Source: a virus (Duplodnaviria > Caudoviricetes). Taken from it: 56,840 nt of DNA. The notes beneath the pieces were generated by a model. It was not told the DNA's origin. It searched no databases and saw only the letters and a list, made by a program, of their open reading frames with translations. The position numbers and the translations under genes are program-made. Positions 33,010 through 53,491 of the stretch are shown in pieces; within the stretch, counting starts at the first letter, position 1; the number at the start of each line of letters is the position of its first letter. The stretch lies in the IMG/VR virus record IMGVR_UViG_3300025120_014829, positions 1 to 56,840 of that record. One strand, 5' to 3'.

Positions 33010-33318
33010 TTAAGCTGCTTGGATTGCGTGGTAATGCAGTTCACCAGTAAAAGCAGAAGAAAAACCAATAACTACTTGTGTTGTTGACACTGACACTATG
33101 AAAGTGTTAATATTTGCACCATTATTACTAGCGCTGTCAAAAGCAGTTGCTGTTACAAACGGCGCTGATGTAAAATTTGTTGAAAAAGCAATTGTTATTG
33201 TATCTGTACCTGCTATTTCTTTTTTTCCTGATTCGAATACCACATTCCCTCCTGATACTGGCTTTCTTCTTATAAATGGATATACTTTTCTAAATCTGTT
33301 ATCATCTCTTAACGCCAT
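33010..33318 (-). CDS. Small beta-sandwich virion accessory protein (H-lectin/gp53-like)
   Basis: Start MALRDDNRF overlaps the PhoH stop (TAATG); ITIAFSTNFTSAPFVTAT pattern. Confidence 0.55.
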   Translation of the reverse strand: MALRDDNRFRKVYPFIRRKPVSGGNVVFESGKKEIAGTDTITIAFSTNFTSAPFVTATAFDSASNNGANINTFIVSVSTTQVVIGFSSAFTGELHYHAIQAA

Positions 33319-34667
33319 TATATTATCCTTGCTGCTACAGCAGATAAGTATGATCTTTCTCCTCTTTTTAATGCAATGTGCGATGCACAATCTTCATTTT
33401 TAAATTTCTCAGAGACTACAGTTAAACCGTTTGATAGTGTATCTATATATGGCGTGTCAATTTGATCTACATCTCCAAGCAGAATTATTTTAGAGTTTTC
33501 TCCCATTCTAGTAATAACCGTCTTAAGCTCATGAATCGTTGCGTTTTGTGCTTCGTCCATTATCAAAATACTATTATTAAAAGTCCTACCTCTTATAAAA
33601 GATAAAGGCGCTACTTCAATTATGCCCTGTTCTTTTAATGAACTAAACAAGGAAAGATTGTTATCTTTTAGACCTACACGGAAGTTATCCATAATAGGTG
33701 CCAACCATGGGCTCATTTTATCATCAGCAGTACCAGGTAAAAAACCAATATCCCTACCCACAGGTGTAATATTTCTTGTTATAATAATTCTATCATAATA
33801 CCCAGCCTGGACTAGTGCGTATGCGGACATCAAAGTTATAAATGTTTTTCCGCTACCTGCAAGGCCTGATATTGTGACTAACGGCAAAGATATATCGAGT
33901 AATGAGTTTAATGCATAAAGTTGTTCTCTATTTTTTGGAGAAATACCTAGTCTTAAAAATTCTTCCATTAATTCTTTTGCTTGATGTATTTTTTCTATCT
34001 TTCCCTGATCCCATCGACCTAAAAAAGAAGAACTTCCTGATTTAACACAGAAATATTCATTTGCATGAGGCTTCCTACCTATTTTTTCTTCGCACAAATC
34101 AACAAATTCTTCTAAAACATCACCTTCTTCATTATTTAATGTATAGTCGTATAGTCGGCCTATTATACCGGTGTCATCTGTGTTTAAATCAAAAAACCCT
34201 TTAAATGCTTCTGAGTTTTCTAAAACTATTTTATCTTTATAATAATCTTCTGACTTAATACCTAGTGAATCACATTTAACTCTAAAGTTGATGTCTTTTG
34301 TTATCAGAATAACTTTTGATTTATTACCTTCTTGCAGATTTAAAGCTAAGGATATCATTTTATTATCAGCATAATCAGGATCTAAACCTAGAGGAACTTG
34401 ATTAAATCCTGAGAGTGCAACCCTTATTGTTTGACCATTTTCAATTTCAATCCCCTCATGAAGACTGCCTTTCCTTCTTAAGCCGTCTAAGTATCGATTA
34501 ATATACCTAGCATTTTCACCCACAAGACCCTTTTTATCTTTAAAGCGATCTAGTTCATCTAAGACCACTAACGGTAATAAAACATCATTTTCTGGAAAAG
34601 AGTGTATTGAATTTTTGTCATAAAGCAAAACACTAGTATCGATGATAAAAATTTTTCTTTCATTCAT
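33318..34667 (-). CDS. phoH: PIN-PhoH fusion (PhoH2/YlaK-type)
   Basis: IIDTSVLL...VLDELD (PIN); GLAGSGKT, IGFLPG, RGRT, DEAQN, GD..Q (PhoH). Confidence 0.93.
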   Translation of the reverse strand: MNERKIFIIDTSVLLYDKNSIHSFPENDVLLPLVVLDELDRFKDKKGLVGENARYINRYLDGLRRKGSLHEGIEIENGQTIRVALSGFNQVPLGLDPDYADNKMISLALNLQEGNKSKVILITKDINFRVKCDSLGIKSEDYYKDKIVLENSEAFKGFFDLNTDDTGIIGRLYDYTLNNEEGDVLEEFVDLCEEKIGRKPHANEYFCVKSGSSSFLGRWDQGKIEKIHQAKELMEEFLRLGISPKNREQLYALNSLLDISLPLVTISGLAGSGKTFITLMSAYALVQAGYYDRIIITRNITPVGRDIGFLPGTADDKMSPWLAPIMDNFRVGLKDNNLSLFSSLKEQGIIEVAPLSFIRGRTFNNSILIMDEAQNATIHELKTVITRMGENSKIILLGDVDQIDTPYIDTLSNGLTVVSEKFKNEDCASHIALKRGERSYLSAVAARII

Positions 34668-36191: not shown

Positions 36192-37436
36192 CTATTTGTT
36201 AATTATTAAAACTTCAAAACTTTCAAGCTTTTCAGTTAGACTTTTGATCTTTCCATTAGCAATATTAATATAGTCGCTTGGTATGTAAAATATTTGATCA
36301 TCTAATGATCTTACTAACACTTGATTTTTATTTGTATTTGCCAAGAATCTAAAAAAGTAATCTAATTCTCTTAATGACTTTTTATTACGTGTCATCATAT
36401 CTGGAAGATAAACGTTAACTCTTTCTGAAGTTAGATTTTTCAATCTTTGTTGTAGCGGTTCTATTTTAACATCACTTTTTAACTTTGCATCCTGTATTCG
36501 CTTTTTAATAAATTCTCTATGCAACTCTATCTCTACTTTTCCTATACATGGTTTTAGTATAATCTTGCCCGGTCTAAAACTTATACAATCACCTGTTTTT
36601 AATTTTTTCCTTACTTCTTGTGAGATAGTTTGACCCATAGCACTAGTAACAACATCAGCACCATGAATTACTGCGATATCATTTAGGACATTAAGTGTGT
36701 TTTCATCACTTGAATCTAGACACACTGGATACACTCTGAATTTGTTCATCGAATTGTTTTTAATGATTGTTTGTTTTACTTCTTCTGAGACACCAAAACA
36801 AAACAAAACGTATGGTTCTTTATTTATACTAGCCTCATACAACATGTGATGTATTTCACCTAACGATTCCACAATTCCATCTACAATTATATATTTGTAT
36901 TTTTTAAATGAGTGGTTTGCATTGTTTTTAAAAAAGTCATAATCAAAACTAAAACTAAACGAAAAATCATTGAAATATTCTACACAAATTTGTTCACCAT
37001 GATATTTTTCAATATTGATTGATCTTTTGAGGCTAGCATTATCAAAAAACCACTTAGCTAGATTACGTGTAGTTGGTAACCTCAAACTCTTAATAAAGCT
37101 TTTTTGCTTTTTCTTGCAATATTTGTAATCATTCCTAACTGGTATTTTTTCTTTAAATAATTTATGCAAGAAATATTCCCCTAAGTACGGATATATTTTT
37201 TCACATTCTTCAAATTCATTTATTATTAAGTTTTTTAAAGGTACTTGATAATCATTAGTTGGCATCACGTTTAAATAATTTAATGACAAATCAGATACAA
37301 TTGTTTCACTGTCATAAATGACACTATTTTTATCCACAAAACTTTTAAAAGTATCTGCTTCTTTTTCTAAAAATTGTTGTACTTGTGCATTACCAAAAAA
37401 AATATTATGAGTCACGCCAGAGGTTGTTGCTCGCAT
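36192..37436 (-). CDS. Divergent GroEL/Cpn60-like protein (start uncertain, possibly GTG at 37415)
   Basis: IIVDGIVESLGEIHHML...EPYVLFC.GVSEEV, LNDIAVIHGADVVT...G and LQQRLKNL parallel the GroEL apical/intermediate domains. Confidence 0.65.
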   Translation of the reverse strand: MRATTSGVTHNIFFGNAQVQQFLEKEADTFKSFVDKNSVIYDSETIVSDLSLNYLNVMPTNDYQVPLKNLIINEFEECEKIYPYLGEYFLHKLFKEKIPVRNDYKYCKKKQKSFIKSLRLPTTRNLAKWFFDNASLKRSINIEKYHGEQICVEYFNDFSFSFSFDYDFFKNNANHSFKKYKYIIVDGIVESLGEIHHMLYEASINKEPYVLFCFGVSEEVKQTIIKNNSMNKFRVYPVCLDSSDENTLNVLNDIAVIHGADVVTSAMGQTISQEVRKKLKTGDCISFRPGKIILKPCIGKVEIELHREFIKKRIQDAKLKSDVKIEPLQQRLKNLTSERVNVYLPDMMTRNKKSLRELDYFFRFLANTNKNQVLVRSLDDQIFYIPSDYINIANGKIKSLTEKLESFEVLIINK

Positions 37437-39339
37437 ATGTTAAAATCTCCTCTGCAGAACTTTCGTTATAACTGTATTCTTCAATTAATGTTCCGATCAT
37501 GTCTGTATATTTTTTCTTTTGATCATCGTCTCTTGATTTTGACCGGGTAACAATCCTAGCAATGTCTTTAACAGAAGTTATTAAATACTTTTCAATTGCT
37601 TCTTTTAAAGGACCGTACGATTTATAATCAACAGTCTCACCTTTTCTCATCTTTGAGAACATATATGCAGTAACATCATTTCTGAAACCATCCCTTGCAG
37701 AACCAGTCACGCTTATCATTTCTTCAATGATTCTCATAAATTTTTCATCAGGATCTCTTTCTTCCCGCGTAATCTTATCTTTTACGCGCGTCTTGGTTGT
37801 GTAACATTCAGCATTATCTAAATAAGAATCAAATAATGATTGTGCTTGTTCTTCATAAGCTGTGATAAATGCTTTTGCAATTTCTGTTTCTAGAATTCTA
37901 AGATATTCTTCACGAATGATCTTTTGGAGTATTTCAAGATATCTAGTTTTTGCTTCTTCGTCGATAACTTGCTCTTTAACTTGTTTAATTAAAGAATCAA
38001 CTACATTAATAGGAGTAATCATTCCATTATCTGAGTCTGAAAGAGCGGCATCTAAAGATTTCATAATAAAACGTGTAGAAATACCTTCCATCCCCTCATG
38101 CTTTGCTTCATCTTTAAGATCACGAATATCAACCTTTTTAACTCTACCTTTTTCAATAATAGCTTCACCGTTATAGATTTTCAACTTTGTCAATAAATCA
38201 CACTTATTTGAGGGTTGGAGTCGCGACATAATTGAAAACATTGATGCTACTTTTAATGTGTGCGGTGCAATATGGGCATTTCTAAAGTCTGATCTTTTTA
38301 TCATTTTTTGATAAATTTTCATTTCTTGGTCTAATTCTAAAACATACGGTACATTTATTTTAACTACTCTATCTAAAATTGCTTCGTTAGTGTGCTCTGA
38401 TTTAAATCTATTCCATTCACTTTCATTACAGTGCGCAAGAATTACACCGTCAAAGAAAACCATATCATGTCTACCAGGAGCCGGTACACGTTTTTCTTGG
38501 GTTGCTGTCAGCATCGTATGTAAGAATTCAATTTCATTTTTAAACACTTCAACAAATTCGACAATACCCCTGTTACCCACATTAAACGCACCGTTTAGGG
38601 AGAGGACTCGTGGGTCATCTTCAGGATATAAATCTAGTTTACTAATGTCTTCAGTTCCAATTAACACAGAAGTATCCTGGGAGTTTGCGTCCATTGGTGG
38701 TACTACAGCAATTCCCCTTCTACCTCTTTGGGAAAATGTCGATTCAACTACTTTAAAGTTTTCGTATTTACCTTCATACTCATTTAATAATTTCCATCTA
38801 GCAATAGGGCTTAGATCGCCTTCTATTGTTACGCCTAGTATATCTTCCATATCGCTACGAAGAGATCTAGGTATTAATTGCAGGGGTTCACCGCGTTGAG
38901 GATCTCCATCTAGATGAAAATATCTTTGTCCATCAAGCGCGCTTTTTATGTGTTCTGTCAATGCAGATTTACCAGCGCCTACTGGTCCCATTAAAAGAAG
39001 CACTTGTCTACTTTCTTCACCTTTATGAGCGGCTGACTTTAAAAATCTCATTAGTTTATTAATCACAGACTCCATACCAAAAAATTCTTTTTTAAAGTAT
39101 TCGTAAGTTCTTATTTTATCACCATTAAAAATATCTCTATAAGTGTCTGAATCAATATCAACTGTATCGACACCATGATCACAAATTGTTTCATACAATC
39201 TTTTATGAGCTAGCTTTATTTTACCTGGGTCATCTCTAATCAATTCTAAGTACTCTATAAATGTACCTTTAAATTTTTCTTTCTTTTTTTTATTTCTTTG
39301 GTTTTGTATGAGTTTCAACAATTCGTTTTTACGTGTCAT
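37405..39339 (-). CDS. prkA: PrkA/YeaG family AAA+ ATPase/serine kinase
   Basis: LLMGPVGAGKS, NRGIVEFVEVFK, HCNESEW, EGMEGISTRF; 644 aa. Confidence 0.93.
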   Translation of the reverse strand: MTRKNELLKLIQNQRNKKKKEKFKGTFIEYLELIRDDPGKIKLAHKRLYETICDHGVDTVDIDSDTYRDIFNGDKIRTYEYFKKEFFGMESVINKLMRFLKSAAHKGEESRQVLLLMGPVGAGKSALTEHIKSALDGQRYFHLDGDPQRGEPLQLIPRSLRSDMEDILGVTIEGDLSPIARWKLLNEYEGKYENFKVVESTFSQRGRRGIAVVPPMDANSQDTSVLIGTEDISKLDLYPEDDPRVLSLNGAFNVGNRGIVEFVEVFKNEIEFLHTMLTATQEKRVPAPGRHDMVFFDGVILAHCNESEWNRFKSEHTNEAILDRVVKINVPYVLELDQEMKIYQKMIKRSDFRNAHIAPHTLKVASMFSIMSRLQPSNKCDLLTKLKIYNGEAIIEKGRVKKVDIRDLKDEAKHEGMEGISTRFIMKSLDAALSDSDNGMITPINVVDSLIKQVKEQVIDEEAKTRYLEILQKIIREEYLRILETEIAKAFITAYEEQAQSLFDSYLDNAECYTTKTRVKDKITREERDPDEKFMRIIEEMISVTGSARDGFRNDVTAYMFSKMRKGETVDYKSYGPLKEAIEKYLITSVKDIARIVTRSKSRDDDQKKKYTDMIGTLIEEYSYNESSAEEILTYASNNLWRDS

Positions 39340-39392
39340 AAATTATATCTCCTGTTTCATATATTAATTAATACGTTCTCAGCGTAAAATAC

Positions 39393-40721
39393 TTAAATTT
39401 CCCAAACTTCTTCTTCTATAATTGTAAAAAGTTTAACTTCTTTGTCCCACATTTCCCTTACGTGATCCATCACTTTGTCTGCATAGTCTAAGTCTAAGTC
39501 GCGACCATCATGTTCATGTTTCAATACAAGCGACCCATCACTGTCAACCCTGTCTACATAAATATGAGGTATCATGTTAATCCCGGTGTTTCTAATCATT
39601 TCTTCTCTAACAACTTTCCAATCATCGTGATCAGTAACTTCAGAAACCACAGCTGATCCATCTTTTTTATTTTCGTATGCAAAAAAGTTTAATTCTCTAA
39701 AATCTTCTTCATCAAGTAACATTCTTAAGGCTGCTACGTCATCATGATTATCTCTCACTTCAAAACATTTTTCTAAACCATGCTCTCTTTCCATTTTTTG
39801 AAAGATATAAAAACCTACGTGATATGGGTTAACACCACCTAGGTGAGGCCTCACTACTGCATTGTGCATTTTTAGAAAAGGTAAGTGCATTGAATCTGGT
39901 AACTCTAAGTCATGAAGTATTTTGTAGTGCCAGAAAGATGCCCACCCCTCATTTAATATCTTTGTTTGTATTTGAGGCATAAAATACCAACTATCTTGTT
40001 TTACAATTTCAAGTAAATCAAGCTGCCAATTGGTAAACTTGTCTGGATAATATTCTGTGAAAAAAGACAAGAGGTCATGATCGGGTTTTAAGAGTCTTCT
40101 TGTTTCTAAACCTTCAAAGTCTAACACAAGACCTTTTTCTTTGTATGCATTATATCTTTTAATTTCTCTTTCTTTTATTTCACACCTAGTTTCTCTAGGT
40201 ATGCCGTAACGATCAGTCTGGTATTTTATTGCGTGTAGATTATCTAAAAAAGATTCAACTTTATCTTGACCTATGGAAGGGTTTTCAATATAACTTTGTA
40301 TTCTTTTTTTAGCATTTCTCATCCTTGAGACAACATGATCTGGGTCTGTATTTTTAAAACACCTGTTGTTTTTAAAGAAATCACTATGCCCGACACAATG
40401 TGCCATGATTAATATTTGCAGATACAGTGGATTCTGAAGCATTAAATATGCAATTGATGGGTTTGAATTAATAATCATCTCATAAGGCAACCCACTTTGA
40501 CCCATGTTGTAGTTGAGGTGTGTTCTTTCAAAAGTCTTACCATAACTCCAGTGATTATAGTGGCTTGGCATGCCATGATACGACATATGACCTATCATTT
40601 CGTAATAATCACAAATTTCATAAGTTATTTCAAACCAATCTAATCCGTAATTACGAGCTATTTCACATATTTTATCATCCCAAACGCTTAAATCTTTTGG
40701 TGAATATTCAGATAAGCTCAT
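39393..40721 (-). CDS. spoVR: SpoVR/YcgB family protein
   Basis: HWSYGK, YEMIINSNP.IAYL, AHCVGHSDFFKNN, QTKILNEGWASFWH, NPYHVG; start at 40721 after GGAGG. Confidence 0.93.
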   Translation of the reverse strand: MSLSEYSPKDLSVWDDKICEIARNYGLDWFEITYEICDYYEMIGHMSYHGMPSHYNHWSYGKTFERTHLNYNMGQSGLPYEMIINSNPSIAYLMLQNPLYLQILIMAHCVGHSDFFKNNRCFKNTDPDHVVSRMRNAKKRIQSYIENPSIGQDKVESFLDNLHAIKYQTDRYGIPRETRCEIKEREIKRYNAYKEKGLVLDFEGLETRRLLKPDHDLLSFFTEYYPDKFTNWQLDLLEIVKQDSWYFMPQIQTKILNEGWASFWHYKILHDLELPDSMHLPFLKMHNAVVRPHLGGVNPYHVGFYIFQKMEREHGLEKCFEVRDNHDDVAALRMLLDEEDFRELNFFAYENKKDGSAVVSEVTDHDDWKVVREEMIRNTGINMIPHIYVDRVDSDGSLVLKHEHDGRDLDLDYADKVMDHVREMWDKEVKLFTIIEEEVWEI

Positions 40722-41883
40722 ATTTTCCTCCAAATAACTTTGAAAATTGTGGCCATATATCTTTTTTGTCTCTAATGTTGATCACCTTAAATTTATCACT
40801 TATTAAAGGTTCAAATATTTTTGCCATTTCTTCTCCCCAAATTTTTTCCTGTGATCTCTTTATTTGAATATACCCGGCTAGTTGACTTATATTTACTAAG
40901 TTTCTCATCTTTTCTAAAGCTTTAGGGTTGTCTTCAGACCAATTTTCACCATCAGAACAATGAAATGTATAAATATTCCAACTTGATGGTGAATATCTTT
41001 CCTGCATTATCTGTTCAGCTTTTTCTAGTCCTGATGATATATAAGTCCCACCGGATGATGCTTTTTTAAAAAAGTCATCTTCGTTTGTTTCTTTCGCTTC
41101 AGTTGTGTGTGAAATAAATACCAAATCAATATTCTGGTATTTGAATCTGATAAATTGATATAGTAAGAAAAAGAACGATCGTGCAAGAAATTTCTTTCTT
41201 TTTGTCATGGAACCAGAAACATCCATTATCATAAAAATGACTGCATTAGTCACAGGTTTTTTAGTGACCTCAATATGTTTGTATTTAAGATCATCTTCAT
41301 GAAAAGGAAACCTATCTTCACTTTCTGGGTCAAACGTTCCATTATTAATGGCGCTGTTTCTTCTTCTAATCTTATTTTTTAAAGTTTCTTTCTTTGACAG
41401 TCTTGCATTAATACCTTTAGGTCTATATCCTTTGCGTTTGATCCGATCAGATGTCACAGTGTTATTCTGTTTCTTCTTAAGTTCAGGAAGGTTTAAATCA
41501 TCAAATAAGTACTTTGCTAGTTCATCTAATGAAACCTCGACATCGTAGTAGTCCTCTCCAGCACTATTGCCCGGCTTTTCTGGTTTACCGGCGCCTTTAC
41601 CTTTCTGTTTAGGTTTGCGAACTACTTGTCCTTTTTTAATATCTTGCCCTTGAGCTGATCCTACACCCTTAGTGCCACTACCTACACCATAAATAAATTG
41701 ATATTCTTTAATACCTCTGACGGGTATCTTTATTTTCTTTTTACCGTCTTGACCAATTATGCTTTCTTCAGCTACAATATCATGTATACCTTCTTTGATG
41801 GCTTTATCAATCTTTTCTTTGTGCCTTCTTCTATCTGAAGCAGATCTGTCTGCAACTGTCTTATGATTCTTAAATACTGACAT
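40708..41883 (-). CDS. yeaH: YeaH/YhbH (DUF444) vWA-domain protein
   Basis: DRRRH, MDVSGSM (MIDAS), FISHTTEA, SGGTYISS, HCSDGENW. Confidence 0.92.
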   Translation of the reverse strand: MSVFKNHKTVADRSASDRRRHKEKIDKAIKEGIHDIVAEESIIGQDGKKKIKIPVRGIKEYQFIYGVGSGTKGVGSAQGQDIKKGQVVRKPKQKGKGAGKPEKPGNSAGEDYYDVEVSLDELAKYLFDDLNLPELKKKQNNTVTSDRIKRKGYRPKGINARLSKKETLKNKIRRRNSAINNGTFDPESEDRFPFHEDDLKYKHIEVTKKPVTNAVIFMIMDVSGSMTKRKKFLARSFFFLLYQFIRFKYQNIDLVFISHTTEAKETNEDDFFKKASSGGTYISSGLEKAEQIMQERYSPSSWNIYTFHCSDGENWSEDNPKALEKMRNLVNISQLAGYIQIKRSQEKIWGEEMAKIFEPLISDKFKVINIRDKKDIWPQFSKLFGGKYELI

Positions 41884-41986: not shown

Positions 41987-42805
41987 ATGGATGACAATAA
42001 TATATTAAAGCTAATTTTAAAAGATTTACAAAAATTAAATGAAAAAAAGAAATCTAGTGGAATGAGAAGTGTAAAGAAAGGTGCAGACAATAATCCTAAA
42101 GTTACTAAAATGGATTTTCTGCCGGACAAGGTTTTAAATAAAATAGCTAAATCTAAAAACGAAGAAAAAGGTGAAGAGTGCTCTGCATGTGGCCATGTTG
42201 CAAAAGGAGATGATACAAATTGCGAGATGTGCAAAGAACCTCTAAACAATTTACAAGAAAAGCGCAAGAAAAAAAGAAAGAAAAAGCAAGTCAGGCATGA
42301 TCCGAATTATAGTGCTCCAGAAGGTTCAAAAAGAGATGCAGGGCTAGACAGAGCAAGAAGAGCATACCAACGAGGTGACGTAGCAGCTGCTGCAAAAATA
42401 AGAAGAAATATGGAAAAACCACATATGAAAGAGTCAAAACAGATAAATGAACTAAATGAACTTTTGAATGATATGATTGAGGAGCAGCTTTTAGACGAAA
42501 TGCTAAATGAATTAGAAAATCAGCTTAATGAAAAAAGAAAGCGTAAAAAGAAGAAGAAAAAAGGCGGAGGTTTATCTGCTGCAGTTAAAAAATCGCTTGA
42601 TAAGAAAGCAGACAAGAGATGTCTGACCCGCGGTTCTGTATATTCTGAGTTTAGAAAGGGGCTAGCAGCATTTTTATCCTCAGGTTCTAGAAAAGGTATG
42701 TCAGCACATCAATGGGCACATGCTCGAGTTAATTCAGCAAACCCAAGTAAGTCATGGGCATCTGTAAAGAAGCGCAAAACATGTCCTAAAAAGAAAAAGA
42801 AGTAA
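41987..42805 (+). CDS. Highly basic protein with a Zn ribbon and a DUF5824-like C-terminal domain
   Basis: CSACG...CEMC, poly-Lys tracts, LNE repeats, RKGLAAF.SSGSR...AHQWAHARVNS. Confidence 0.75.
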   Translation: MDDNNILKLILKDLQKLNEKKKSSGMRSVKKGADNNPKVTKMDFLPDKVLNKIAKSKNEEKGEECSACGHVAKGDDTNCEMCKEPLNNLQEKRKKKRKKKQVRHDPNYSAPEGSKRDAGLDRARRAYQRGDVAAAAKIRRNMEKPHMKESKQINELNELLNDMIEEQLLDEMLNELENQLNEKRKRKKKKKKGGGLSAAVKKSLDKKADKRCLTRGSVYSEFRKGLAAFLSSGSRKGMSAHQWAHARVNSANPSKSWASVKKRKTCPKKKKK

Positions 42806-42811
42806 TTAGAT

Positions 42812-43159
42812 ATGAAGATAACAAGACGTTTTATAAAGAACCTAATCAAGGAAGTAAAGGGAGGCAATTCTTGTCCTGCTGCGACCAAAGATAAGAAAGT
42901 TAACGCTGAAAACAAAATCAAAGCTGCAAAAAACCCTAAAATCAAATACGGTCACCCAAGTAAAATTAAAGATTTGCAAAAGCTTTTAAAAGAAAATAAA
43001 CTTTGTGGCAATTGCGCTGCTTTTGACATTACCCCTAAAATGATTAAGTGTGGCGGAGCTAATAAGAAAGGCACAGCAGGCTACTGTAAAATGCACGACT
43101 TTAGTTGTGCAGCAGAAAAGACATGTTTAACTTGGGCACCAGGAGGACCAAAGAGATGA
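42812..43159 (+). CDS. Cys-rich small protein with MKITRR leader
   Basis: CPAAT, CGNCAAFD, C, GYCKMHDFSC...TCLTWAPGGP. Confidence 0.8.
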   Translation: MKITRRFIKNLIKEVKGGNSCPAATKDKKVNAENKIKAAKNPKIKYGHPSKIKDLQKLLKENKLCGNCAAFDITPKMIKCGGANKKGTAGYCKMHDFSCAAEKTCLTWAPGGPKR

Positions 43160-43803
43160 AAATAACAAGAAGACAAATTAGAATATTATTAGAACAAGAA
43201 GTTGAAAAACTTTCTGATGAAGAAAAAGTAGCTGCAGAAAAAAAGATAGAAGACGAAGGTGGTGCTTTAGGTAAGGATGACTTTGTAAAAACAGTCAATG
43301 ACATCAACCCAGATGTAAATTACAGTGAAGAAGAAGCGTTACGTCGAGCTCAAGCATCAATTGAAGACTTTAAACTTCATAAGGCTACAGATGTATACAC
43401 CGACAGACCAAAAGAAATTAATGAAACTTTTTTAAGGCGATTAATAAGAGAAAAACTTGAAAAGATTGCTTTCTATGACAAGTACAGTTACGGATTAGAT
43501 GATATCCCTAACCAGACAAAAGCACATGACGATATTATAGGTCACACATGACTGACTCACGTTAAGCGGAAGGATTCTGCTTTAAATGAGGTTGGCAAAG
43601 TACTTTGGCATTCTTTAGATGAGAGCGGTCATATTGCTACATATGACGTTAAATGGTCTAATGATGTCATTGAGCGTGACATACCTTCAATATTACTTGA
43701 AAAAGTAAAAGACAGTAATGATATTGATGAAGTTCATGAATCACACGGTGTTGAAGGTCACAGATTAGATGCGCCTACAAGTGAAAGAAAATACAAGCTT
43801 TAA
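43156..43803 (+). CDS. Candidate selenoprotein (215 aa; in-frame TGA at 43549-43551 read as Sec)
   Basis: AGGAGG RBS and ATGA overlap at 43156; frame stays open for 83 codons after the TGA to TAA at 43801-43803; SECIS-like hairpin follows the TGA; context GHT-U-LTHV. Confidence 0.75.
43552..43590 (+). promoter_or_regulatory. Bacterial SECIS-like stem-loop
   Basis: AAGCGGAA(43564-71)/GGA/TTCTGCTT(43575-82) 8-bp stem with one G-U pair; lower CTCA/TGAG pairing; G-led apical loop begins after a 20 nt spacer from the UGA. Confidence 0.65.
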
Positions 43804-44504
43804 AGACTTAAATCAACGTCAAAAACATTGTCGCGCATATCATAAAGTTTTTGTATATCTCCCTCGCTACGCAGTATTTTATAAATAATATTCTCGTCAG
43901 ACATTTCGCCTCCTTTATCGAGTCCAGCCTGGCGCATGTTATTAATCTTTTTTATAAGTTTATCGAGGTCCGCAGTGATTCTAGTAATTTTAGCTTCATC
44001 AATTTCCATATTAATTTGTCTCCTAAGATACTTTACCTTTTTTAAAACGTTTTGCTTGTCAAAACTACTTCTAAACTTATCAGGTTTTGACAACCATTTG
44101 TCATCTTTAATTGAATACACACCGCTCTCAACTGACTTCATATTTACATCTTGCGCAAATAACTCCACTTCAATGTTCAATACACGAATGTCATGTCGAA
44201 AATTAAATAGTTTTTTCTTTGCCTTTAAGAATTCTTCAACTAAATCGACGTCACGATTAATAGACTTTGGATCAACTATAATATGCAGATCAATGTCTGA
44301 ATAAGGAGTATAGTTGTAGTTTGCGTATGACCCTGTGAATGTCACGTCAATTACATCTATAGAAATACCTAGGTAATCTACGAAAGCATCGGATATTTCA
44401 AGCAGTTGTTCTCTAATATCAGGTTTTAGTTTATCTTCTTTCCACAATTTAACACTCAGTTCATCATGTGGTAAATGCTGTTTTATTTTGCTGCTAATTG
44501 ACAA
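43800..44504 (-). CDS. Pol-beta superfamily nucleotidyltransferase (phage type)
   Basis: TGSYANYNYTPYSDIDLHI (GS...DxD), VELFAQD, GVYS, ENIIYKILR; start codon uncertain. Confidence 0.85.
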   Translation of the reverse strand: MSISSKIKQHLPHDELSVKLWKEDKLKPDIREQLLEISDAFVDYLGISIDVIDVTFTGSYANYNYTPYSDIDLHIIVDPKSINRDVDLVEEFLKAKKKLFNFRHDIRVLNIEVELFAQDVNMKSVESGVYSIKDDKWLSKPDKFRSSFDKQNVLKKVKYLRRQINMEIDEAKITRITADLDKLIKKINNMRQAGLDKGGEMSDENIIYKILRSEGDIQKLYDMRDNVFDVDLSL

Positions 44505-52402: not shown

Positions 52403-53491
52403 TTACCTGTCTAAAAACAGAGAATACGACCCATCATAGTACTTTATAATAATACTAGCATTCTCAGCAGCATTAATTAAATGATGAGAGTGGTAAATAT
52501 AAGACTCATATGTTTGTTCATCAATTTTTTGCTTATATTCCTCAACAAAATCATTATAACTTTGCATCATTTCTACAAAAAATCGAATATTAACATTAAC
52601 AATCTTATCAATCCCTTCAGTATTATTGTAGATTTCTTTGGCAACCTGGTCAGGCGTTAATGATTTAATCATTTTAAAAAACACATTAAAACGATCGATT
52701 CCATCTTTTGTTGCAAATCCTCGACGAAAGTACTCAAATATTTCAGCAATTGTGGTACCACTCGAAGCGCGCTGTTCATAACTTAATTCTGATGGTGATA
52801 AACTATCTCCGGAAAAACCAAGCAGTGGTAGTAATATGTCTTTTAAAGTGTCATCAAATTCACTTTTTAGTTCATTCTCAGTGCGATTAATAAATGAAAA
52901 GACTTTGCTAAATCCAGCAGGTGTAAAGTGTTTTATATTAATACCCTTTGAATATCCTGAGTGCAAAAAGATTGTTTTAAAAAATAAATGAATAGGACTA
53001 ATTCCGTGAGCATTAGAAGTAACAAGAAAATCATCATACTTTTCACCCATCTCAATTAAATCATCCCGCGAGTCTGTTAAATAAAAAGAATTGTCATGCG
53101 CAATCTTGAAAAACACAGCAATAAAATTTACTTCTGATGTCAAATTACCTAACTTTGTCAAGTTTTCTCTACCAGAAGGTGTCATTAACTTACCAATCGA
53201 CGAAGCCCCTCTTGTATCACCACCGTGCATAGAGTACTTACTAGTAAAAAACTCTAGCCTGGATGGCAACTCTAGAGTAGAATCTGTTTTTTTAAAACCA
53301 GATCTTTGCTTAGATCTATATATCCCGTCAGGTAAAGCACGATACAGCGACAGCACACTCTGTATCATTAATCCCACAGCATGACTAGTCATCGTAGATT
53401 CTTTAAATTCGTCAGGAGCAGACTGCAAAGCTAGCGTGTGCATTAACGATTCTTGTATTAACTTTCTTAATATTTTCTTTGTTACTTTCAT
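52403..53491 (-). CDS. Hypothetical protein with leader motif
   Basis: MKVTKKILRKLIQESL N-terminus; 362 aa. Confidence 0.75.
   Translation of the reverse strand: MKVTKKILRKLIQESLMHTLALQSAPDEFKESTMTSHAVGLMIQSVLSLYRALPDGIYRSKQRSGFKKTDSTLELPSRLEFFTSKYSMHGGDTRGASSIGKLMTPSGRENLTKLGNLTSEVNFIAVFFKIAHDNSFYLTDSRDDLIEMGEKYDDFLVTSNAHGISPIHLFFKTIFLHSGYSKGINIKHFTPAGFSKVFSFINRTENELKSEFDDTLKDILLPLLGFSGDSLSPSELSYEQRASSGTTIAEIFEYFRRGFATKDGIDRFNVFFKMIKSLTPDQVAKEIYNNTEGIDKIVNVNIRFFVEMMQSYNDFVEEYKQKIDEQTYESYIYHSHHLINAAENASIIIKYYDGSYSLFLDR

Follow-up and report, generated by a model that had tools for sequence, protein, structure and literature searches.

The locus and its in-frame TGA

The DNA considered here, referred to below as the window, is a 56,840-base virus record from IMG/VR, belonging to an uncultured marine giant phage, that CheckV rates as about 20% complete and that has a G+C content of 34%. 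Its genes are closely packed, with the minus strand predominating. Some 26 kb of the minus strand (about 3013-29679) is given over to sugar-nucleotide and polysaccharide genes, including NeuB, a DAHP/KDO-type synthase, three cytidylyltransferases, UDP-glucose dehydrogenases, epimerases/dehydratases, at least eight glycosyltransferases, methyltransferases, and a Nol-type carbamoyltransferase. Also on this strand are a gene for a PIN domain fused to PhoH (33318-34667) and a trio encoded together, namely the PrkA kinase, a YeaH-like DUF444 protein, and SpoVR (37405-41883); the closest phage matches of this PrkA belong to Thermus phages and to 600-kb uncultured phages, at 30-35% identity. A UvdE gene is present in the window as well, and an open reading frame at 41987-42805 has a weak match to DUF5824 that falls below the cut-off.

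The gene at issue lies on the plus strand (Table 1). It begins with an ATG that shares bases, as ATGA, with the TGA closing the reading frame upstream, and the encoded protein runs from an N-terminal leader, MKITRRQIRILLEQE, through the core motif IIGHT-U-LTH, where U marks the in-frame TGA, into a predicted small beta-barrel. A further 83 codons stay open after the TGA before the frame closes. The coding sequence on both sides of this codon is conserved in relatives, and the peptide that spans it is the most conserved of the family.

Table 1. Features of the candidate selenoprotein gene and of variant hairpins at related sites
Feature	Position or loci	Strand	Remarks
Candidate selenoprotein gene	43156..43803	+	215 codons, then TAA 43801-43803
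Proposed selenocysteine codon, in-frame TGA (codon 132)	43549..43551	+	sole in-frame TGA of the gene
Spacer CTGACTCACGTT, 12 nt	43552..43563	+	C directly after UGA
Hairpin 5' arm AAGCGGAA	43564..43571	+	third-codon-position entropy 0 bits, codons +5 to +8
Apical loop GGA	43572..43574	+	first G synonymous (AAG vs AAA), invariant
Hairpin 3' arm TTCTGCTT	43575..43582	+	pairs with AAGCGGAA
Lower helix, outer limits (CTCA 43556-43559 and TGAG 43587-43590)	43556..43590	+	folds in the window, unconserved
Hairpin AAGCUGAA-GUC-UUCAGCUU	L075, L076, L082		
Hairpin AAGAUUCA-GGA-UGAAUCUU	L080		
Hairpin AAAGCUG-AGUU-CAGCUUU, with CGUCUG and AAGUUG variants	L142-L151		subfamily E, 10 loci

A hairpin downstream of the TGA

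An earlier note on this DNA, made from the letters alone, had pointed to an 8-bp stem closing a GGA loop shortly after the TGA and had proposed that it forms a SECIS-like element within the coding sequence. Both the pairing of the letters and RNAfold confirm the stem, which consists of seven Watson-Crick pairs and one G-U. When a 71-nt segment was folded, RNAfold returned the same hairpin together with a CUCA/UGAG lower helix at -18.8 kcal/mol (z -2.28), and equally good folds arose in 3 of 200 shuffles. The minimum free energy of the 39 nt from 43552 to 43590 is -11.3 kcal/mol, and that of the bare upper stem is only -6.8 to -7.3 kcal/mol.

Such a hairpin is found after just one of the 24 TGA codons in the window that have at least 40 open codons on each side, and this one is the TGA of the gene described above. 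The same count in G001, a 202-kb relative, gave one of 79 candidate TGAs, which proved to be that of the homologue of the window gene; by these hairpin criteria, neither the window nor G001 contains a second selenoprotein gene. The hairpin at 43564-43582 is real and goes beyond what chance would produce. As a separate matter, an intrinsic terminator was considered and set aside: the terminator check did not flag the hairpin, and a T run is absent.

The codons from which the hairpin is built are rare ones. Among 59 window reading frames, CGG makes up 29 of 812 arginine codons (3.6%) against 53% for AGA, as had been suspected from the sequence, while AAG provides 28% of lysine codons and CTG 4.8% of leucine codons.

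The general features of bacterial SECIS elements have been set out in a recent review of the prokaryotic selenoproteome, whose main text gives a loop of 3-9 nt, an upper stem of 4-16 bp, G at one or both of loop positions 1 and 2 (usually G and then G or U), a distance of 16-37 nt from the UGA, and a minimum free energy of -7.5 kcal/mol or lower (PMC13188914). The window element falls within all four constraints, with a 3-nt GGA loop, a stem of 8 bp, a spacing of 20 nt between UGA and loop (43552-43571), and an energy of -11.3 kcal/mol. An Rfam search of positions 43300-43850 at E values up to 10 gave no match; bacterial SECIS elements are described as poorly represented in that database in the portion of a preprint consulted here (10.64898/2026.04.03.716425).

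Conservation of the codon and covariation of the stem

Related sites were collected from 15 IMG/VR loci and 55 metagenome loci, which with the window make 71. All 71 have TGA at this position, and they comprise 50 distinct downstream sequences. This uniformity bears on the possibility that the gene is simply broken or that the record contains an assembly error, a reading for which the stop codon itself, and nothing else, can be cited. Seventy independent loci, drawn from many assemblies, share this TGA and conserve the coding sequence downstream, and we give this explanation next to no weight.

Across five subfamilies, the distinct site sequences divide into 54 with TGA, two with TGT, and one with TGC, with TAA and TAG never seen. 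Each of the 54 distinct TGA sites is followed, 10-13 nt after the codon, by a hairpin of at least 5 bp, and in 52 of them the stem reaches at least 6 bp, so that the earlier expectation of a hairpin in other UGA-containing homologues was borne out. Stems range from 5 to 9 bp and loops from 3 to 5 nt among the relatives. The loop is GGA at 36 of these sites, GGG at seven, GTC at three, AGTT at seven, and AGGGT at one; a G is present at loop position 1 or 2 in each of the 54.

Most of the detail comes from a main group of 51 distinct sequences, in which the seven inner pairs of the stem form without exception. Two of these pairs switch together in eight sequences, from AU to GC and from CG to AU, and a third appears as GU, AU, or GC. 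The joint switch also alters the encoded peptide, from KRKDSA to RKK[G/D]SS. The base of the hairpin behaves differently from its apex. The earlier note had extended the stem with TT/AA and CTCA/TGAG pairs, and CTCA/TGAG does fold in the window, but the lower-helix pairs form in 20, 37, 50, and 35 of the 51 sequences with zero compensating changes, and the T/A pair that adjoins the stem is present in 39 of the 51; that part of the proposed extension is not a conserved feature.

When 57 distinct sequences were taken together, 97.1% of the cells in the alignment of the stem were paired, and six of the eight pairs showed changes on both sides (35 cells). None of 500 shuffles matched the observed covariation, and registers slid along the alignment paired at 35-59%. 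RNAalifold, applied independently, returned six pairs; every one of them has compensating changes and is unbroken. Folding and covariation analysis, the checks named in the earlier note, recovered the hairpin, with the proviso that the compensating changes stem from a handful of subfamily splits and not from dozens of independent events.

The subfamilies differ considerably in the letters of their stems, which include AAGCGGAA, MGGAAGAA, AAGCUGAA, AAGAUUCA, and the AAAGCUG, CGUCUG, and AAGUUG forms. The last three belong to subfamily E, in which the site reads H-K-TGA-ATG-AAG-GAA, with an A after the UGA and an ATG immediately following. Counting from the U of UGA, the G and U of the AGUU loop in this subfamily fall at bases 23 and 24, where we take SelB to make its contacts in fdhF.

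Constraint on synonymous sites follows the outline of the hairpin. Third-position entropy is 0 bits in the four codons that make up the 5' arm and the loop, while flanking codons with an invariant amino acid have third-position entropies of 0.8-1.9 bits and synonymous sites in the spacer vary freely (0.8-1.3 bits). The leucine that follows the TGA is encoded by CTG, CTA, or CTT in 50 of 50 main-subfamily sequences, as compared with a share of 42% for CTN among leucine codons of the window, and a C follows the UGA in the same 50 sequences. From the pattern of substitutions, then, the hairpin is under selection as RNA.

Homologues with tryptophan and cysteine calls

Database proteins at first sight offer a mixed picture of the residue encoded at this site. 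A protein search gave 86 matches, 43 of which stop exactly at ...IIGHT and 38 of which read through with a W. Six of the W proteins were traced letter for letter to their DNA, and all six have TGA. The W at this site is therefore a gene-calling artefact of translation table 4, and the false calls (among proteins P0002-P0087) arise from table-4 calling on short contigs. Gene callers either cut the protein at ...IIGHT or insert a false Trp, so the family is misannotated wherever it is present.

The public W calls in 38 homologues are also what might be cited in favor of TGA being read as an amino acid throughout the genome, as in codes 4 and 25, or in late genes by means of a phage suppressor tRNA. 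Against this, TGA terminates 20 other reading frames out of the window's 61, most of these stops being part of tight ATGA overlaps, and at most 27 open codons follow them, compared with the 83 seen here. TGAs comparable to the one in this gene amount to the single cases among 24 in the window and 79 in G001 noted above, and the typed tRNAs of five larger relatives (G001 and G006-G009) include none with a TCA anticodon and none that reads UGA. Since TGA serves as an ordinary stop for those 20 reading frames, genome-wide reassignment is rejected, and the wider set of readings to which it belongs is very unlikely.

A profile search of 1.84 billion representative sequences yielded 183 proteins at E <= 0.001. 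Twenty of the matches were inspected at the site, where 15 had W, four had Cys, and one did not span the position. The four with Cys aligned to the TGA are P0148, P0181, P0189, and P0211 (E values from 1.3e-10 to 1.3e-5), and the residue sits in a conserved H-x-[U/C]-x-x-H motif. These Cys forms are about 30-36% identical to the core of the window gene's product, a level of identity at which the alignment of the cysteine rests on the motif together with the barrel.

In DNA, cysteine codons were located at five sites: TGT at L074 and L078, TGC at L079, and TGT in the cyanophages P-SSM7 and S-CAM3 (L198 and L199). None of the five carries the hairpin, in agreement with the prediction that cysteine-containing homologues would have lost it. 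Searches for related loci of P0148 and P0189 found none, and in these two the cysteine is known from the protein alone. Both parts of the Sec/Cys pair criterion are thus present, namely conserved in-frame coding sequence after the UGA and homologues with an aligned Cys. A TGA with a hairpin in some members of a family, as against a cysteine codon without one in others, is by sequence comparison the classical pattern of selenoprotein genes in bacteria.

The cysteine forms also show where the wider family is found. A fold search of BFVD returned cyanophage proteins (E values from 1.6e-4 to 1e-3), and tblastn with the Cys-type protein P0211 returned 105 records, nearly all of them cultured Synechococcus or Prochlorococcus phages and cyanophage isolates, two of which were read at the site (PSSM7_192 of P-SSM7 and T040910_181 of S-CAM3). 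The window gene and its 5-kb region gave zero matches in 50,697 phage records by tblastn and blastn. When the family profile was run against 185,579 bacterial and archaeal species, with one genome each, there were 34 pattern matches and no relatives, and the family is accordingly regarded as viral.

The continuity of the cysteine forms is also pertinent to the idea that two polypeptides are made, with translation stopping at the UGA and restarting nearby and the hairpin serving translational coupling. The 10 loci of subfamily E do have an ATG directly after the TGA, and overlapping genes of the ATGA kind are frequent in the window. On the other hand, no in-frame ATG, GTG, or TTG comes close after the TGA in the window or the main subfamilies; the cysteine homologues, those of cultured cyanophages included, run without interruption through the site; and the H-x-[U/C]-x-x-H motif spans the codon. 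An arrangement of this kind is improbable, and conceivable in subfamily E alone.

Decoding machinery and the host

The window and ten related records (G000-G010), two of the 11 being 96% and 100% complete, contain no tRNA-Sec above the family cut-off, no SelB, and no SelD. Matches to tRNA-Sec below the cut-off turned out to be Leu-TAA and Ser-TGA tRNAs. Because the phage records encode none of the three components, host machinery would be needed to decode the UGA as selenocysteine.

The lack of these genes in the phage records can also be cited for programmed read-through, in which a near-cognate Trp (or Cys or Arg) tRNA would decode the UGA at low frequency to give products of 131 and 215 residues in a fixed ratio, helped by a hairpin and a leaky UGA-C context that slow release factor 2. 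The weak context of UGA followed by C and the stimulation of read-through by RNA structure are well established in viruses, and the main-subfamily sequences have the C in 50 of 50 cases, with a hairpin positioned to meet the ribosome. Several observations fit poorly with this model. The homologues have Cys, not Trp, at the site, the 38 database proteins with W being suspect given that the six traced have TGA. The codon is exclusively UGA and never UAG or UAA. The first G of the loop is invariant where a synonymous change would be allowed, and a G is found in the first two loop positions at 54 of 54 sites, neither of which a simple roadblock would need. Finally, truncation in the short forms of the family would leave a product of about 50 residues, from which the entire conserved domain would be missing. 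We give read-through a low, though not negligible, probability.

Selenocysteine insertion is the preferred reading, and taking the comparative evidence as a whole, we put the probability that this is a phage selenoprotein gene at roughly 70%. The earlier note's central proposal, that an in-frame UGA is followed within the coding sequence by a SECIS-like element, is well supported by comparison with the relatives.

The host is a bacterium, as indicated by a bacterial-type tmRNA in one relative and by the bacterial gene layout. The tmRNA, with the tag ANDNVEYDYALAA, is encoded on the minus strand at 630-993 of L164 in G009, a 284-kb record rated 100% complete. None of the 185,579 species genomes has an identical stretch coding for this tag, and tblastn searches with PrkA and a nucleotidyltransferase matched unrelated phages of many hosts, giving no pointer to a particular one. 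It had also been proposed that the hairpin could point to the host lineage, on the grounds that recognition by SelB is lineage-specific. This was not supported: the element fits the general bacterial SECIS consensus, with no visible lineage signature, and so the hairpin by itself names no lineage. According to the main text of the review, that consensus covers most bacterial SECIS elements (PMC13188914). One lead comes from the part of the preprint consulted, which describes Actinomarina as having selenocysteine machinery and Pelagibacter as having none; it is a lead only (10.64898/2026.04.03.716425).

A proposed route of decoding

If the selenoprotein reading is correct, decoding would follow the bacterial pattern. 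With a host ribosome arriving at the UGA, the hairpin about 12 nt downstream would be located where the mRNA enters. Host SelB carrying GTP and Sec-tRNA(Sec) would bind the G-rich apical loop, which begins 20 nt past the UGA. Insertion of selenocysteine in place of termination would then give the 215-residue protein, with H-T-U-L-T-H placed immediately before the first strand of the barrel. The process would depend on host selA, selB, selC, and selD.

The protein and its leader

Few clues to function are available from searches with the protein. Pfam and PHROGs assigned no family to the read-through product, Pfam gave nothing below an E value of 0.02 for eight distant homologues, the family profile had no match among PDB sequences at E values up to 1, and the ESM Atlas returned only unnamed viral clusters. 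The structure model of the whole protein is poor, with a mean pLDDT of 56.5, and that of the core (window residues 84-215) is better, with a mean of 77.9 and values of 88-95 over the five strands of the barrel. In this model, the small barrel would span residues of about 133-190, and the selenocysteine position would directly precede its first strand. Matches to solved structures are weak, with best Z scores of about 4.8-5.7, and are mostly to SH3, KOW, and Tudor-type barrels; the profile also matches a Tudor-repeat protein, P0157 (E 1.9e-9).

The conserved residues of the family are H-x-[U/C]-x-x-H, xHSL, YDV, and a terminal H-x-H. No second conserved Cys is found near the site in the aligned family, and the arrangement thus differs from CxxU and UxxC, the usual redox motifs. 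Our guess would be that the selenocysteine and the conserved histidines form a metal or redox site.

The N-terminal leader has a wider distribution than the core. The pattern MK[IV]T[RK][RK]QLRxLIxE begins four window genes, at 42812 and 43156 on the plus strand and at 53491 and 55828 on the minus strand, along with 13 genes of the 202-kb relative G001 (L152-L162), and its matches among genes of other large viral contigs are numerous. The leader-bearing proteins of G001 and the window that were tested have no Pfam or PHROG family. The leader recalls what we take to be the capsid-targeting sequence of the T4 internal proteins, and this analogy would make it a possible signal for capsid targeting or for processing. 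By virtue of the shared leader, the product of the TGA gene may be loaded into the capsid and carried to the host.

The gene immediately upstream (42812-43159, plus strand) has a Cys-rich product (CGNCAAFD...GYCKMHDFSC...C) that starts with this leader too. In the 202-kb relative, the TGA gene is likewise preceded by a homologue, which is longer (L003, 1874-2674), and the two genes therefore form a syntenic pair.

Relation to known systems

The closest parallel to the window element is provided by bacterial SECIS elements such as that of E. coli fdhF, which likewise consist of a stem-loop within the coding sequence after the UGA, with a small loop beginning with G-G or G-U and a stem of 7-8 bp. 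It differs from them in belonging to a phage gene of a family without cellular members, and in having a 3-nt loop with no bulged U seen; binding by SelB is a prediction.

Selenoproteins encoded by viruses are not in themselves new. Beyond its use in cells, decoding of selenocysteine is on record for the glutathione peroxidases of two poxviruses, molluscum contagiosum and fowlpox (PMC8310308). They share with the present candidate a gene carried by the virus, reliance on the selenocysteine machinery of the host, and, in fowlpox, a SECIS element that also lies in the coding region. Those proteins, however, belong to viruses of eukaryotes and are captured cellular genes with eukaryotic-type SECIS elements, whereas the element described here is of bacterial type and belongs to an exclusively viral protein family in a virus with a bacterial host.

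Among phages, the nearest relatives in culture are two proteins of T4-like cyanophages, the P-SSM7 protein PSSM7_192, annotated as 'possible cytitidyltransferase', and the S-CAM3 protein T040910_181. Both share the core features H-x-C-x-x, xH[DT]L, YD[VI], and a terminal HEH. They differ in their TGT codon, in their want of a hairpin, in having other N-terminal parts, and in their hosts, which are Prochlorococcus and Synechococcus.

Two other kinds of phage recoding invite comparison. The A1 protein of phage Q-beta and the products of other UGA read-through genes are made across an in-frame UGA with a conserved extension, and in this respect resemble the present gene, but the cysteine homologues, the sequence-constrained loop, and the use of UGA only point here to selenocysteine. 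In phages with recoded stop codons (TGA as Trp, TAG as Gln), table 4 likewise opens the frame, but many genes are affected in those genomes; here a single codon would be recoded, and TGA stops 20 other reading frames.

A search of titles and abstracts found no report of a phage-encoded selenoprotein, although the family lists of a marine trace-element survey (PMC9402790) and of deep-Sep (PMC12013277) might include the family unnoticed. The main text of the 2026 review of the prokaryotic selenoproteome does not contain the words "phage", "virus", or "viral" (PMC13188914), and the marine survey, in the part consulted, describes selenoprotein families with few or no viral sequences (PMC9402790).

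Implications for phage biology

We consider it reasonably probable that the genes described here make up the first bacteriophage selenoprotein family, one in which marine jumbo phages of about 200-290 kb borrow the SelB and tRNA-Sec of their hosts while relatives, cultured T4-like cyanophages among them, use Cys. If this is true, phages exploit the recoding machinery of the host, such phages would be limited to hosts competent for selenocysteine, and the selenoproteome would gain a family that is exclusively viral. The cysteine homologues in cultured cyanophages make the function of the protein testable in the laboratory. The switch between selenocysteine and cysteine would follow the ability of the host to decode selenocysteine, the UGA and its hairpin would serve as a marker of host range, and the fitness of these phages would be linked to the supply of selenium.
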